Source: an uncultured Gammaproteobacteria bacterium
Lineage (GTDB): Bacteria > Patescibacteriota > Patescibacteriia > UBA9934
Assembly: GCA_964344415.1 (NCBI GenBank)
Contig: CAYFMS010000002.1
Coordinates: forward strand, 128,196 to 192,195
Direction: 5' to 3'
DNA: 64,000 bases
In this document: piece after piece, positions 1 through 46,262 of the stretch
How the letters are laid out: every line of letters starts with the position of its first letter
Position numbering within the stretch: the stretch's first letter is position 1
Notes under the pieces: model-generated
Databases searched by the model: none
The model's input: the letters and a program-made list of their open reading frames with translations, nothing else
Told to the model about the DNA's origin: nothing
Position numbers and translations under genes: made by a program

Positions 1-127
1 CAATCGATATGAATTTAGAGCGAGCACTCGAATACATTGATAGCGACGAATACGTGGAAATTACTCCAGAAAATGTCCGCATCCGCAAAAAATTCCTCAC
101 CGAAAACGAAAGAAAACGGCAGAAGTA
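1..127 (+). CDS. typA: 3' end (partial) of GTP-binding protein TypA/BipA
   Basis: Frame 3 reads ...[33 protein letters not shown], which matches the conserved TypA/BipA C-terminus. The CDS enters from upstream of the window. Confidence 0.6.
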
Positions 128-132
128 AAAAA

Positions 133-160
133 ATCACCACCAGTTGGTGGTTTTTTATAT
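133..160 (+). terminator. rho-independent terminator after typA
   Basis: Hairpin caccacc-agtt-ggtggt followed by a T6 run. Confidence 0.6.
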
Positions 161-221
161 AGCATTTGTAGCGGCCTGTATACTTTTCGGCTAATACAAG
201 CCAATAATTGGTAATAATATC

Positions 222-250
222 TTGACAGAGGTCCAAAAATATGCTACAGT
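222..250 (+). promoter_or_regulatory. sigma70-like promoter (TTGACA-N17-TACAGT)
   Basis: Perfect -35 hexamer, a 17-bp spacer, and a near-consensus -10, sitting upstream of the GC-rich ORF. Confidence 0.45.
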
Positions 251-402
251 GCATCTCTGTTGCTGCTGCTGCTGTGTTGATTGGCAGATGTGGCGCGAAC
301 TATCGTGCCCTGCCTACTTCTCAACACGATTGAGCAGTTCATATACAGAACAGGCTTTGGCTGTATATGGGTACAATGAAAGGCCATAAGGAGGGCACGC
401 TG

Positions 403-957
403 ATGCCTGACACGGATAATAGCATCATGATCACCACCACCCCGCTGGACCGTTGGATCGGCCCGATCCCAAACACAGTGCGGAAGGGCGAGGATCTGCC
501 CGCTTGGGGCGGCCTTGAGCCAACTCATTGGGGTGAGGGCGGGCATCCCTTCGACTGGGATTCTGGCGCCCACATGCGTCGTGATGAGCAAGGTTGGTGG
601 GTTGGATTGCCGGATCGACCCGTACTGACGGCGGTTTACATTCTGAGGGATGCCAAAACCGCTGGCGCGGACCTTACCGCGATCGAAGGTGTCTATAACG
701 CCGAGCGGATCACAGCCGACATCCCTGGCTGTCCATCGGTTGAGGAGGTGGACATCATCCACGCGGCCTTGAGTCGTTTGGGTGCTGCGCCGATCTCGGA
801 GAAGGGTGTCCGGCGCACTGCTGGGCATCTTCGCAGGGCCTTGGCGGCAGCAATCAACTTTTCGATCGAAGCTGCACAGGCATACGATCGTAAGGCGAAG
901 GACTGCAACGACAGCGGCGACGTTGTCAGACGTAGTCGCAAAAACAAAAAAACGTAA
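403..957 (+). CDS. hypothetical protein encoded on a high-GC (~60%) insert
   Basis: SD aaggaggg lies 7 nt before the ATG at 403. The product is MPDTDNSIMITTTPLDRW... with no recognisable family. A terminator follows the stop codon. The opposite-strand ORFs here are GC artefacts. Confidence 0.45.
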   Translation: MPDTDNSIMITTTPLDRWIGPIPNTVRKGEDLPAWGGLEPTHWGEGGHPFDWDSGAHMRRDEQGWWVGLPDRPVLTAVYILRDAKTAGADLTAIEGVYNAERITADIPGCPSVEEVDIIHAALSRLGAAPISEKGVRRTAGHLRRALAAAINFSIEAAQAYDRKAKDCNDSGDVVRRSRKNKKT

Positions 958-965
958 CCGTCCCG

Positions 966-1006
966 ACGACCGCCCTTGGCGACCTCGTCCGAGGCGGTCT
1001 TTTTTA
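966..1006 (+). terminator. rho-independent terminator
   Basis: Stem gaccgcc...ggcggtc followed by a T6 run. Confidence 0.5.
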
Positions 1007-1020
1007 TATATATCTCATGA

Positions 1021-1050
1021 AATGAAAGAAACGGCAGAAGTAAAAAATTA
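1021..1050 (+). repeat. degenerate direct repeat of the typA 3' end (compare 98-127)
   Basis: gaaagaaacggcagaagtaaaaaa at this position versus gaaagaaaacggcagaagtaaaaaa at 101-127. The two copies differ by one indel. Confidence 0.7.
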
Positions 1051-1107
1051 ATAAGAAAAACAATTGTAGTCAATATAAAAACCTAGTCTTTATGACTAGG
1101 TTTTTAT

Positions 1108-1191
1108 GGTGGGCCGAGCTGGACTCGAACCAGCGAAGGCGAATGCCAGCAGATTTACAGTCTGCCCCGTTTGACCACTTCGGTATCGACC
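1108..1191 (-). tRNA. tRNA-Tyr (GTA)
   Basis: Hand-folded cloverleaf on the minus strand. The anticodon loop is cuGUAaa, the variable arm is long, the T-arm is GGTTCGAGTCC, and a CCA end is encoded. Confidence 0.8.
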
Positions 1192-1213
1192 CGCAACATT
1201 GTTAATTTAAAAA

Positions 1214-1290
1214 TGGAGCCAACTGTGGGATTCGAACCCACGACCTACGGTTTACAAAACCGTTGCTCTAACCAGCTGAGCTAAGTTGGC
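1214..1290 (-). tRNA. tRNA-Thr (TGT)
   Basis: The minus-strand sequence is GCCAACTTAGCTCAGCTGGTTAGAGCAACGGTTTTGTAAACCGT...GGTTCGAATCCCACAGTTGGCTCCA. The anticodon is TGT. Confidence 0.8.
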
Positions 1291-1499: not shown

Positions 1500-1575
1500 A
1501 GGGGAGTAGCTCAGTTGGTAGAGTAGAGGTCTCCAAAACCTTTGGTCGCAGGTTCGAGTCCTGTCTCCCCTGCCA
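1500..1575 (+). tRNA. tRNA-Trp (CCA)
   Basis: The acceptor stem pairs aggggag with ctcccct. The anticodon loop is ctCCAaa, the T-arm is GGTTCGAGTCC, and the 3' end is CCA. Confidence 0.8.
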
Positions 1576-4535: not shown

Positions 4536-4706
4536 ATGTCTCAAGATAATTTGATCAAATTAGAATCTGAGGGTGACGAAAACGGTGTTGGGAAAGGACA
4601 TATTATCCGATCTCATAAAAACACGAAGAAGTTGAAGGATCGTCTTCGGATCAAGAAATATAATCCTATTGCCGGAAAACATACCTGGTATAAGGAAACA
4701 AAGTAA
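4536..4706 (+). CDS. rpmG: 50S ribosomal protein L33
   Basis: 56-aa ORF below the ORF-track cutoff. It ends ...KLKDRLRIKKYNPIAGKHTWYKETK, which is L33-like. This is a Cys-less variant. Confidence 0.65.
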   Translation: MSQDNLIKLESEGDENGVGKGHIIRSHKNTKKLKDRLRIKKYNPIAGKHTWYKETK

Positions 4707-4740
4707 AAAATAGCCACATCGAGTGGCTATTTTTTAGATC
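4707..4740 (+). terminator. terminator hairpin after rpmG
   Basis: tagccacatcgagtggcta followed by T6. A near-identical copy lies at 4897-4935. Confidence 0.55.
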
Positions 4741-4896
4741 AGCTACATTTGTGATCTATCATTTCAGATCTCCATTGCTCGACACCGTACGTTTATGTAC
4801 GGCTTACTCTGCTATTCGATCTTCAATGATATCTCATCAAATGTATCATGATCATCGGAATCGGGTCCTCACATCTGCACCGATATCTTAAGAAGA

Positions 4897-4935
4897 ATGG
4901 CCACATCGAGTGGCTATTTTTTAGATCAGATACAT
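4897..4935 (+). repeat. second copy of the rpmG terminator hairpin
   Basis: ggccacatcgagtggctattttttagatcag repeats 4711-4745. Confidence 0.6.
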
Positions 4936-4949
4936 TCCGAGATCCGATC

Positions 4950-5085
4950 TCAAATCGGATCTCAATTTAGCGATATTCTAAAATTATAATCGCTCCAATC
5001 GCTAATATTAGTGAATTTATAATTCAATATTCCGCGGAGATCGGATCTCGGATGTGGATAAGTAAATCGGATCTCGGGAAGGGAA
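4950..5085 (+). repeat. short repeats of atcggatctc(gg) and a GATGTGGATAAGT box upstream of rnhB
   Basis: Four copies of cggatctc and a gagatcggatctc palindrome. The perfect DnaA-box complement tgtggataa lies at 5062-5070. Confidence 0.55.
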
Positions 5086-6928: not shown

Positions 6929-7164
6929 ACAGCCGTATTATAGCAAGTTCACTTGACTGGAGTGTGATTCACGGTTATCCTTTTGCTACATTTCGAATTA
7001 GCAAGCTGTCGTCGATTGCAATTTGATGTACTTACACTACGTCAGAATAGTAAAGTCTGTTGAGTACAAGGCGCGGGTGGTGGTCGAGGAGCCGTATTTA
7101 AACATACGGTGACGAAGACCGACGGGTCCCGCAACGCCGTAATCAGCAGACTTGGACTATTCTA

Positions 7165-7240
7165 GCCGCCGTAGCTCAGTTGGTAGAGCGCATCCATGGT
7201 AAGGATGAGGTCACCAGTTCAATCCTGGTCGGTGGCTCCA
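7165..7240 (+). tRNA. tRNA-Thr (GGT)
   Basis: Sequence GCCGCCGTAGCTCAGTTGGTAGAGC...atGGTaa...GGTTCAATCC...GGCTCCA with a hand-folded cloverleaf. Confidence 0.8.
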
Positions 7241-7244
7241 ACAA

Positions 7245-7268
7245 AGCCCGTCTTCTGACGGGTTTTGT
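7245..7268 (+). terminator. terminator after tRNA-Thr
   Basis: Stem cccgtc-ttct-gacggg followed by a T-run. Confidence 0.55.
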
Positions 7269-7408
7269 TGTCTCCTGAATATGATAAAGGGTTTCCGGCA
7301 ACGCCGGACCAGGCTCCGCCTGGCAAGCCCCGACGGTGGCTCCATCACGAATATGTGAATAGATCAGGGGTTCCCCCTGTTTTTTAATAGATCAGCTTTC
7401 AACTTTGT

Positions 7409-7440
7409 AAAAATAAAAAACCGAGGCGGCGATGCCTCGG
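7409..7440 (-). terminator. minus-strand rho-independent terminator
   Basis: Stem ccgaggc-ggcgat-gcctcgg with an A-run on the plus strand, which is a T-run on the minus strand. Confidence 0.55.
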
Positions 7441-7473
7441 ATCATGGGTGAAGATGCTGTAAGGCGGCGGGAG

Positions 7474-7650
7474 TTACCGGCCATGATCTTCAACGATTGC
7501 CGTGCCTGCGCAGCTACATTCCTGCACATAGCTCGTGAACAGAAAGAGGGCCAGGGTGAAGATCACGACGAGCGCTCGACCCTTACCGCCACTGCCTTTA
7601 TGATCTTGTTGATCATCCCAGTTCGCAAGATTATTGTCTGAACTCAACAC
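7474..7650 (-). CDS. possible small membrane protein (GTG or TTG start)
   Basis: Reads ...DNNLANWDDQQDHKGSGGKGRALVVIFTLALFLFTSYV... A GGAGG sits just upstream. The region is GC-rich and open on both strands, so the call is uncertain. Confidence 0.2.
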   Translation of the reverse strand: MLSSDNNLANWDDQQDHKGSGGKGRALVVIFTLALFLFTSYVQECSCAGTAIVEDHGR

Positions 7651-14529: not shown

Positions 14530-14850
14530 GTGTCGCTCGTGAGTTAGCGATCTTTCGCTTCAGTTTTCCGTTGCTCATTCACCGTACGTTTCAGTACGGC
14601 TCATTCCGCTACTCAAACTTCAACGAAATATCATCTAACTCACTTCGCGACCACAATCGTAATCCCAAACTTGATATGGGATCCATACGATGCGCCTCTC
14701 GACTACTTACTATTTTCTACTAACTACTTACTGCTAAATCACTGCGCGACCCTATTCGAAATCCTGAGCCTGTCGAAGGATCTTTCCAAATTGCGACCAG
14801 AATCTCCTCAATCTCCTAAATCTCCTTTATCTCCGTTTCACGCATATAAT
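14530..14850 (+). repeat. mosaic intergenic repeat element, copy B (modules M1-M2-M3-M4)
   Basis: Starts immediately after a stop codon. Shares gtcgctcgtgagttagcgatc, the hairpin ccgtacgtttcagtacgg, cacttcgcgacc, and gatcgaaatcctgagcctgtcgaaggatct with the other loci. Confidence 0.7.
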
Positions 14851-15109: not shown

Positions 15110-15180
15110 TTTTTATTTTGTCGCTTGTGAGTGAGCGATCTTGATCGAAATCCTGAGCCTGTCGAATTGACGATTGCTCT
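15110..15180 (+). repeat. mosaic intergenic repeat element, copy D (M1 fused to M3)
   Basis: The segment ttgtcgcttgtgagtgagcgatcttgatcgaaatcctgagcctgtcgaa. Confidence 0.7.
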
Positions 15181-18349: not shown

Positions 18350-18560
18350 CTGTCGCTTGTGAATGAGCGCTCTTTCGGCTCAGATCTGCGCTACTCGACG
18401 TCGCACCTTTCAGTGCGCCTTACTGCGTGTGCTCGATCTTCACCGAAATAGCATCTCATTCACTTCGCGACCCGGATCGAAATCCTGAGCCTGTCGAAGG
18501 ATCTTTCTGTATCTACAAGCTACCAGCTAAAACCTACCAGCTACTTACTGCGCAACTCGC
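18350..18560 (+). repeat. mosaic intergenic repeat element, copy C (M1-M2-M3-M5)
   Basis: gctgtcgcttgtgaatgagcgctc, hairpin cgcac-ctttca-gtgcg with compensatory substitutions, cacttcgcgacc, and gatcgaaatcctgagcctgtcgaaggatct. Confidence 0.7.
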
Positions 18561-29388: not shown

Positions 29389-29445
29389 TTATCCACAGTC
29401 AATGCCCGACTTAGATGTGGATAAGTCGGGAAGGGGATTTGAGGT
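29389..29445 (+). promoter_or_regulatory. nested palindrome containing inverted DnaA-box sequences (cttatccaca / tgtggataag)
   Basis: Sequence acTTATCCACAgtcaatgCCCGACTTAgatgTGGATAAGTCGGGaaggg. It lies between murF and the GC-rich island. Confidence 0.5.
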
Positions 29446-29493: not shown

Positions 29494-30291
29494 ATGCAAT
29501 ATAAGCCCGAAATGCTTCGTGCTGCAGAGGTCGTCCTTCGCGGCGGCTGTGCTGAGCTCTCATATGACTTCATGTCCACGGTTGAGTCGTTGTACCCAAT
29601 TTTCGAAACGAGAGACTCGCTGGACGATCATCTACATACACTGCTTCAAGTCGACAGAAGCAAGGACGGAAAGGATCCAGACGATGGATTCATCGTCCGT
29701 GACCAGAAAATGCGGAATCACATCGGAGAGCTTTACGATCCGAAAGACGTGTTCATGTACCGGCCTGATCTTTGGTCGCGTCACTACTGCGACACCCTGC
29801 CACCACGTGTGCTCGACAGATTGCGGTCGTATTGGAATCCGTTGCGTACGGTCCATGGGAAATGTGACAGGATTCACCGTGAATTCTGTCTAGCTCTTGG
29901 TGAGGTTTCTGGAGAGCGGGAGCTTTTCGACCAACTGTCTCACAGGGATCATTCCGAGTTTGCTGGTTCAAAGCTTCGACTGCTCCGTTACCGCGAGCCG
30001 CGAGAGACGGATCCAGCAAAGGTCGGAAAATTCCACACCGACCGATGCGCGATCACGTATCACTTGGCTCAAAATCATCCTGGACTCGTTGGTCCAGACA
30101 ATGAGCTGGTAGATGTTCGACCTGACAAGATCCGTATTTTCCCATCTGATCAGCTGCAAGTTGTGACGAGTGGAAGGATTCCGGCATGGCGTCATGGCGC
30201 AAGGTATGTCGAACCATACCCGCCCGGCGGGCGTCGCATGGCCGTGTACTTCGCTAGGTTCTTCAAGGGCCAGAACGACAGAGGTATCTGA
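29494..30291 (+). CDS. 2OG-Fe(II) oxygenase superfamily protein on a high-GC (~57%) island
   Basis: SD aaggagg upstream. Contains LRLLRYRE...FHTDRCAITYHLAQ...GLVG...WRHGARY, which is an IPNS-like HxD...H pattern. Overlapping ORFs here are GC artefacts. Confidence 0.55.
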   Translation: MQYKPEMLRAAEVVLRGGCAELSYDFMSTVESLYPIFETRDSLDDHLHTLLQVDRSKDGKDPDDGFIVRDQKMRNHIGELYDPKDVFMYRPDLWSRHYCDTLPPRVLDRLRSYWNPLRTVHGKCDRIHREFCLALGEVSGERELFDQLSHRDHSEFAGSKLRLLRYREPRETDPAKVGKFHTDRCAITYHLAQNHPGLVGPDNELVDVRPDKIRIFPSDQLQVVTSGRIPAWRHGARYVEPYPPGGRRMAVYFARFFKGQNDRGI

Positions 30292-36003: not shown

Positions 36004-36099
36004 AAGAAAAACAAGGGATGCCGGATCGAGTCCGGCATGACGGTTGCTGATGGATTCCGGCTCGGAGGCCAGAATGACGATCACGGATTGAAGCCGTAA

Positions 36100-36390
36100 C
36101 TCGTGACCTTGATCGAAATCCTGAGCCTGTCGAAGGATCTATTCCCGCCTTTGCTCTTCCCCCCTTCGCTCGGCTAGCCGAGCTTCGGAGGGACATGTAG
36201 AGCTACAGCGGACATGTATGCCCGGAATGACGCGAAGCTCCTAAAATCTCCTTTCAATCTCATTTATCTCCTCCACATAAATCCGTATATTCGTACTATC
36301 CGTAAATCTGTAACGGTGACCCCACAAGCTACGAGCTAAAACCTACAACCTAAAATTCGTGCTATCCGTAAATCAGTAACGACACCCTAA
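36100..36390 (+). repeat. mosaic intergenic repeat element, copy E (M3-M4-M5 plus internal tandem)
   Basis: gatcgaaatcctgagcctgtcgaaggatct, ctcctaaaatctcctttcaatctc, and two cgtactatccgtaaatctgtaacg-like units. Confidence 0.7.
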
Positions 36391-46180: not shown

Positions 46181-46262
46181 TATCCCCACCAAGGTTAAAC
46201 CTTGATGTGGATAAGTGCCGTTCAAGGTTTAACCTTGCTGTGGATAAGTAAAGTCTGTTAAT
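46181..46262 (+). promoter_or_regulatory. cluster of three DnaA-box-like sites with two tandem palindrome-plus-box units
   Basis: ttatcccca, then caaggttaaaccttg-aTGTGGATAAGt, then caaggtttaaccttg-cTGTGGATAAGt. These are revcomp TTATCCACA. Lies directly upstream of alaS. Confidence 0.5.

Follow-up and report, generated by a model that had tools for sequence, protein, structure and literature searches.

A candidate integrase-less one-gene islet at the 3′ end of typA in a Patescibacteria genome

Described elements and the typA islet

Cis-mobilizable elements (CIMEs) are defined in PMC6323972. In streptococci, CIMEs and microCIMEs are decayed remnants left by integrative and conjugative elements (ICEs) or integrative and mobilizable elements (IMEs), with the attachment sites attL and attR at the 3′ ends of genes that include fda, rpsI, rpmG and rplL; microCIMEs measure 130–220 bp and carry no gene, and classical CIMEs span 1.2–13 kb (PMC7563491). 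Here, we describe a 915-bp islet in the extreme 3′ end of typA, found in a 64,000-nucleotide stretch of Patescibacteria DNA (contig CAYFMS010000002.1 of assembly GCA_964344415.1, positions 128,196 to 192,195, forward strand), which was analyzed as a whole and is referred to below as the window. We interpret the islet as the scar of a site-specific integration, an interpretation that we judge about equally likely to be right or wrong, and the label that suits it best is that of a CIME-like, one-gene islet devoid of an integrase. As in CIMEs, the islet lies between direct repeats, one of them formed by the 3′ end of an intact housekeeping gene, and it holds cargo only, lacking integrase, relaxase and conjugation genes and offering a single credible gene, an open reading frame (ORF) of 184 amino acids (aa). 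Its length falls between those of microCIMEs and classical CIMEs. Unlike in CIMEs, no parent ICE, IME, prophage or cognate integrase is known for the islet or was found in the phage, plasmid, IMG/VR and JGI metagenome collections or in the 64-kb window, and its core is short (19 nt); its target gene, typA, and its host phylum, Patescibacteria, also set it apart from the CIMEs described so far. To our knowledge, conjugative elements are not established in this Patescibacteria lineage.

Comparison with islands and prophages that tyrosine integrases place at the 3′ ends of tRNA, tmRNA or protein genes revealed the same arrangement of an intact target, an insert and a displaced 3′ fragment. The islet further resembles such islands in that its repeats are identical only within a core, the arms having diverged, its composition is foreign and it adjoins tRNA genes. 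Unlike these islands, which span 5–100 kb, the islet is only 0.9 kb long and contains no integrase, excisionase or other element gene, and the neighboring tRNA genes are not its target. An integrase-encoding island or prophage carries a tyrosine or serine recombinase gene beside one attachment site; here, neither the insert nor its flanks (6 kb upstream and 63 kb downstream) yielded one. Integron cassettes (about 0.5–1 kb, often ORFans) are likewise comparable to this one-gene unit of about 0.9 kb, which may have existed as a small circle; unlike a cassette, the islet has its own promoter and terminator, with no GTTRRRY at its borders, no attC-like palindrome apart from a plain terminator and no IntI or attI nearby. 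An insertion sequence or a miniature inverted-repeat transposable element does not describe it either: there are no inverted repeats at the islet ends, the direct repeat is imperfect and spans 19–31 nt, where such elements leave target-site duplications of 2–15 bp, the islet is present in a single copy in the window and no transposase was found. Integrase-less islets with att-like repeats at a gene's 3′ end are a known kind of element, and what is new here is the typA target, the phylum of the host and a cargo that is a complete ORFan. Should the integration reading be true, typA would join the housekeeping genes whose 3′ ends serve as attachment sites, and integrase-less one-gene islets would occur in an ultra-small (768 kb) genome of the candidate phyla radiation, a group in which little is known of mobile elements and of the ways in which genes are gained. 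The islet is nonetheless single and small; it supports a plausible reading of one locus and opens no new mechanism.

The duplicated typA end and the compositional break

The junctions of the islet are defined by the following features, given in window coordinates:

1–127, plus strand: 3′ end of typA/bipA (translational GTPase; 596 aa in full), intact, with its stop codon TAA at 125–127
104–132, plus strand: left direct repeat, attL-like, with the exact core at 114–132; covers the last four typA codons, the stop codon and five A's
133–157, plus strand: hairpin with a T-run just 3′ of the typA stop codon (stem 136–142/145–151), terminator-like on both strands
1020–1047, plus strand: right direct repeat, attR-like, with the core at 1029–1047; a displaced typA 3′-end fragment whose part upstream of the core is out of frame

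The exact core of the repeat, AAACGGCAGAAGTAAAAAA, is 19 nt long and occurs at 114–132 and again at 1029–1047, at a spacing of 915. Likeness between the copies runs leftward to positions 104 and 1020 (AAACGAAAGAAA versus AAATGAAAGAAA), giving a full match of about 29–31 nt interrupted by two single-base indels and one substitution (104–115 versus 1020–1031). All differences between the copies lie to the left of the perfect 19-nt core, and a perfect core with diverged left arms is the pattern that would be expected of a crossover core. The original prediction, made from the sequence alone, had reported a duplication of the typA end about 900 bp downstream; the repeat is real, but its left copy (GAAAGAAAACGGCAGAAGTAAAAAA) lies at 108–132 rather than 101–127, and its right copy (GAAAGAAACGGCAGAAGTAAAAAA) ends at 1047 (1024–1047) rather than at 1050. 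A stop-like TAA is found within the right copy, at 1044–1046.

The repeat is not a chance match: no such pair was matched in 100 shuffles of the window, and its BLAST E-value against the 64-kb window is 2e-4. An empirical null was obtained from the 31-nt ends of 61 other genes in the window, each compared with the next 2 kb; the longest match among them was 11 nt, versus 19 nt for typA. The typA-end pair is unique within the window. A separate family of dispersed intergenic repeats of about 53 nt, with the core GATCGAAATCCTGAGCCTGTCGAAGGATC, is present in five copies (14635–14687, 14734–14786, 15123–15175, 18455–18507 and 36091–36143). Membership of the typA pair in this family, at 14.6–36 kb, had been raised as a possible objection and was rejected, the two being unrelated.

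The DNA between the copies is compositionally exceptional. Positions 251–1000 have a GC content of 58.3%, against a window mean of 42.7% (standard deviation 2.8%, 750-bp windows), and constitute the most GC-rich 750 bp in the 64 kb. In tetranucleotide usage, too, no other part of the window lies as far from the rest, the distance of the insert being about 6 standard deviations from the mean, so that both of the composition checks proposed with the original prediction (GC content and tetranucleotide usage) place the insert at the extreme of the window. The GC content at third codon positions (GC3) of the ORF, 0.645, ranks at the top of 62 ORFs, against a host mean of 0.375 with a standard deviation of 0.06. 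The edges of the insert differ: 133–250, including 151–250, has about 33% GC, and 1001–1023 about 20%. An earlier value of about 60% GC between the copies therefore fits 251–1000 but not these AT-rich margins, and the foreign composition is confined to the transcribed unit.

The gene at the left junction is intact. The complete typA (596 aa), seen in the sequences L001 and L007, encodes the full TypA set of Pfam domains (GTP_EFTU...BipA_C). Comparison with relatives revealed that the C-terminus, ...ENERKRQK, is typical of the clade, which indicates that the gene was restored precisely; the expectation that the genuine typA end and stop codon lie within 1–127 was borne out. The best named relatives of this TypA belong to Candidatus Uhrbacteria and other Patescibacteria (73–82% identity), and the host is a Uhrbacteria-like member of the Patescibacteria represented by a metagenome-assembled 768-kb contig, k127_100043 of ERZ930061. 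The structure typA–ORF–helicase is the same in separate assemblies of the runs ERR2281801, ERR2281802 and ERR2281803 (99.9–100% identity), and a second assembler (Logan) gives the same structure, also at 99.9–100% identity. Since three runs assembled separately share this structure, the islet is not a chimera.

To the right of the second copy lies what appears to be the native flank of typA:

1075–1107, no strand assigned: perfect 14-bp bidirectional hairpin, probably the native terminator common to typA and the minus-strand tRNA pair
1107–1192, minus strand: tRNA-Tyr(GTA), native right flank
1214–1290, minus strand: tRNA-Thr(TGT), native flank
1500–1575, plus strand: tRNA-Trp(CCA), native flank

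In the nearest relative with available sequence (L008), the typA stop codon is followed by 45 nt that include a hairpin and then by a minus-strand tRNA. Here, the stop-like TAA of the second copy is followed by 60 nt with a hairpin and then by the minus-strand tRNA-Tyr. This shared layout supports the view that the DNA from 1048 onwards is the native typA flank. The three tRNA genes expected downstream were found (Tyr, Thr and Trp, at 1107–1575). Their proximity had been taken to fit an integration hotspot; they are indeed adjacent, but the point is circumstantial, as the junctions lie in typA and not in a tRNA gene. Beyond the tRNA cluster, a PIF1-like helicase gene (1616–2941) has host-like codon usage; among GTDB representative genomes, its closest matches come from deltaproteobacterial/Syntrophus metagenome-assembled genomes (MAGs) at only about 50% identity, and a PIF1-family gene likewise lies near typA in another relative (L010).

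The orphan ORF and its expression unit

The GC-rich part of the insert and the AT-rich DNA just upstream of it contain the predicted elements of one transcription unit:

222–250, plus strand: sigma-70-type promoter, TTGACA-17-TGcTACAGT, with a TGn extended −10; 10 of 12 consensus positions match (a consensus match only); located in AT-rich DNA (about 33% GC)
251–402, plus strand: GC-rich 5′ leader, about 150 nt long, that includes a (CTG)n run at 262–275
388–394, plus strand: Shine–Dalgarno (SD) sequence AAGGAGG, which precedes the start codon (ATG at 403) by 8 nt
403–957, plus strand: orphan ORF, 184 aa plus stop; isoelectric point (pI) 6.2; soluble; rich in Ala, Gly, Asp and Arg, with 6 Trp
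964–1006, plus strand: intrinsic terminator of the ORF, stem GACCGCC...GGCGGTC followed by TTTTTT

The promoter, SD and terminator named in the original prediction were all located again, at 222–250, 388–394 and 964–1006. The orphan ORF was also recovered at 403–957, with no homologue, although its product has 184 residues plus a stop codon rather than 185. Together, a predicted promoter, SD, ORF and terminator would form a complete one-gene expression unit, which is presumably expressed.

Several features of the reading frames bear on whether the ORF is coding. The open stretch measures 207 codons in the sense frame and 249 in the codon-register antisense frame, and the other four frames contain 6–12 stops each. 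Two frames of at least 200 codons arose in 1 of 5000 dinucleotide-preserving shuffles, and one such frame in about 3%. This pattern of open sense and antisense frames is as expected from a real GC-rich gene. G occupies codon position 1 at a frequency of 0.41 in the ORF. The antisense product would be rich in Arg and Ser, with a pI of 10.7, in contrast to the ordinary composition of the plus-strand product. With its G-rich first codon position, its promoter, SD and terminator, and its ordinary product, the plus strand is the better coding candidate, and the ORF has the appearance of a genuine protein-coding gene.

Searches for relatives of the product returned nothing beyond the product itself. 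It was the only match in a word-indexed search of 5.8 billion proteins and again in an exhaustive phmmer search against 1.84 billion representatives; altogether, no relative was found among about 15 billion predicted proteins, which indicates that the donor is unsampled. PHROGs, PADLOC, NCBIfam and the PDB sequences gave no significant match, and Pfam gave only weak, sub-threshold hits to RecJ_C and Chap-C. Similarly, nothing was retrieved when phages and plasmids were searched with the ORF by tblastn or when IMG/VR and the JGI metagenomes were scanned for its peptide patterns, and neither the antisense nor the overlapping ORFs had a Pfam match. A single-sequence AlphaFold2 model of the 184-aa protein (mean predicted local distance difference test score 37.6) was too poor for a fold search. 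The homology check proposed for the 403–957 product is, in sum, consistent with an orphan ORF.

At the RNA level, the predicted fold of the leader has a z-score of −1.8, which is not significant, and that of the whole transcript a z-score of −2.8, a weak result obtained with only 20 shuffles. No credible Rfam family was found on either strand of 128–1023 at E ≤ 1; an overlap with WT1-AS_2, a vertebrate long non-coding RNA model, was rejected as chance, as it scored 22 bits and the gathering score of the model is 45. The SD region TAAGGAGGGCACG (387–399) is 85% complementary to CGTGCCCTGCCTA in the leader (304–316), which could form a hairpin that sequesters the SD; this pairing is absent from the predicted minimum-energy fold.

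Proposed origin of the islet and rival explanations

Under the integration model, the end of typA, acting as attB, would have undergone reciprocal recombination with a typA-like sequence, acting as attP, on a small circular or excised element. The agent would most likely be a tyrosine-type site-specific recombinase that either acted in trans or was lost later by deletion, leaving a CIME-like remnant, and the crossover would fall inside the 19-nt identical core. At the left junction, the element would then have supplied everything to the right of the crossover, including a new typA terminator (133–157), leaving TypA unchanged. The original typA end, together with its native bidirectional terminator, would have been displaced 915 bp downstream, beside tRNA-Tyr. 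The order before insertion would have been typA, core, TTAATAAG, hairpin and tRNA-Tyr; the model predicts an empty site (attB) of ...CTCACCGAAAACGAAAGAAAACGGCAGAAGTAAAAAATTAATAAGAAAAACAATTG... and a junction in the circular or excised form (attP) of ...TATATATCTCATGAAATGAAAGAAACGGCAGAAGTAAAAAAATCACCACCAGTTGGTGG.... The cargo would be one autonomous transcription unit, from the promoter at 222–250 to its terminator, encoding a 184-aa soluble protein. Because searches of the insert, of the window and of the 6 kb upstream revealed no integrase, the islet would be a deletion remnant or depend on a recombinase in trans. The codons of the cargo are used as in a donor with about 55–60% GC and show no drift toward host usage, so the acquisition was probably recent. 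The AT-rich, organized ends of the insert, with a terminator right after the restored stop codon and then a promoter, suggest, in place of a random foreign fragment, an element whose backbone is adapted to AT-rich hosts and whose cargo is GC-rich.

Several observations weigh against this integration model. Pfam detected no integrase or recombinase in the insert, nor among the window's ORFs of 180 aa or longer, nor in the 6 kb upstream of typA; for the insert, the original prediction had already stated this from the letters alone. No cognate integrase, related element or attP-like sequence was found in phages, plasmids, IMG/VR or the JGI metagenomes. No empty site was found among relatives, whose genes downstream of typA differ (TypA neighbors P0003–P0006 and P0009), and the duplicate of the typA end is absent from five relatives, so that repeated use of typA as attB is not demonstrated. 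In the literature, we found no account of typA serving as an attachment site. Within the insert itself, the GC-normalized dinucleotide signature is not an outlier (delta* 0.091 versus a mean of 0.085), and the 118 bp and 23 bp nearest to the repeats are AT-rich like the host, making the insert composite rather than uniformly foreign. Finally, a 19–31-nt repeat would also be expected from a RecA-mediated Campbell insertion or a repair-associated duplication.

The reach of these comparisons is set by the isolation of the host. At 90% identity its TypA forms a singleton cluster, with the nearest relatives 81–82% identical, and the downstream helicase, used as a query for the empty site, retrieved only 50%-identical deltaproteobacterial genes among GTDB representatives. 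None of the related genomes carries the insert segment, at ordinary GC without the repeat or in any other form. A scan of metagenomes for the att core gave six matches; two come from an unrelated organism with 50% GC, at the end of its typA, and the others are due to chance; in IMG/VR there were two matches, one by chance (L019) and one in a giant-virus MAG contig (L020) that we assume to be chance as well. The two typA ends, ...GAGAGAAAGAAACGGCAGAAGTAA, lie on JGI metagenome contigs of about 50% GC (L013, 560–582; L017, 10423–10445) and are identical to the right copy over 20 nt, which indicates that codon-level convergence can yield the same typA end in distant lineages. The attL/attR-like scar first proposed thus keeps its duplicated 3′ end, its foreign DNA and its intact typA, but is accompanied by no empty site, integrase or related element; with no close relative and no conserved synteny in addition, an integration scar is not provable at this locus.

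The same end product, direct repeats around an insert, can also be reached without an integrase. A single RecA-dependent crossover at a short sequence that by chance is homologous to the typA end (Campbell insertion), or homology-facilitated or microhomology-mediated illegitimate recombination with repair synthesis that duplicates the target, would fit the missing integrase, and the convergent typA ends described above illustrate how such homology could arise. Competence and pilus machinery is common in Patescibacteria and offers a possible route of DNA uptake. Yet 19–31 nt of homology is short for a RecA-dependent crossover, illegitimate events normally duplicate nothing or a few bases rather than 19–31 nt, and AT-rich ends that place a terminator exactly after the reconstituted stop codon, followed by a promoter, look adapted to the site. 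We consider such an integrase-independent insertion unlikely, though by no means negligible. In another scenario, the GC-rich gene would be an old resident or specific to the lineage, and the repeat would have arisen locally, for example as a short copy of the typA end with its terminator made by replication slippage or gene conversion, in no connection with the arrival of the gene. The insert's unremarkable dinucleotide signature and host-like promoter region are compatible with this scenario, as is a 44-nt block after rpmG (described below) that was duplicated 187 nt on without foreign cargo. A GC3 of 0.645 among 62 ORFs that average 0.375 ± 0.06 is hard to sustain in a resident gene, which moreover has no homologue even in the closest relatives, and the boundaries of the repeat coincide exactly with the DNA that is extra relative to the typA–hairpin–tRNA layout of L008. 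This scenario appears fairly improbable to us.

GC-rich islands in AT-rich genomes often are structured non-coding RNA genes, and the block could in principle be a large RNA gene of this kind with an incidental ORF. Its own promoter and terminator beside tRNA genes, the whole-transcript fold, and an ORF that has neither a homologue nor a confident AlphaFold2 model would agree with this. Against it stand the empty Rfam search, the complementary open frames of 207 and 249 codons, the codon-position-1 G content and the consensus SD 8 nt before the ATG, and we hold this explanation to be very improbable. An assembly chimera, in which a fragment from a GC-rich organism was spliced into the contig, would account for the abrupt change in GC, and the source is indeed a metagenome-assembled 768-kb contig. 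Two joins would be needed, the 19-nt repeat is far below the assemblers' k (k127 in the contig names), and the junctions were recovered in all three separately assembled runs and by Logan; a chimera is scarcely credible.

Within the integration model, a bolder version may be considered, in which Patescibacteria harbor an undescribed family of integrative elements and the islet is its smallest form, mobile to this day. Members of the family would integrate at the typA 3′ end as their attB, with an integrase supplied in trans from another place in the genome or from a phage or episome. The cargo of the islet would be a gene captured from the GC-rich organism on which the epibiont lives, or from a virus of that organism, and would stand for a protein family that has no sampled relatives. 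We regard this version as improbable; if true, the islet would mark gene flow from host to symbiont in the candidate phyla radiation.

A second 3′-end duplication lies 3.7 kb downstream of the islet. Directly after rpmG (L33; 4535–4705), a 44-nt block (4706–4749) comprising a terminator hairpin and AGATCAGCTACATT recurs at 4893–4936, 187 nt on, with 93% identity. The DNA between the two copies has ordinary GC and contains no gene. By analogy, this duplication is microCIME-like; rpmG is a known attachment site in streptococci (PMC7563491). That 3′-end duplications recur in this genome would lend circumstantial support to the integration scar at typA.

Other compositional and sequence features were observed elsewhere in the window. 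A second GC-rich patch (up to 56%) spans 7050–7650. It includes tRNA-Thr(GGT) at 7165–7240, the 3′ end of which, CGGTGGCTCCA, recurs at 7335–7345 (11 nt, at the edge of chance), and a GC-rich minus-strand ORF (7474–7650) predicted to encode a hydrophobic product of 58 aa with its own SD and terminator. An ORF at 29494–30291 for a 265-aa 2-oxoglutarate–Fe(II) oxygenase is a second compositional outlier (GC3 of 0.55 versus 0.375 for the host) and was possibly acquired. Lastly, a DnaA-box-like motif, TGTGGATAAGT, is present at four intergenic sites: 5046–5063, 29409–29426, 46199–46216 and 46232–46249.

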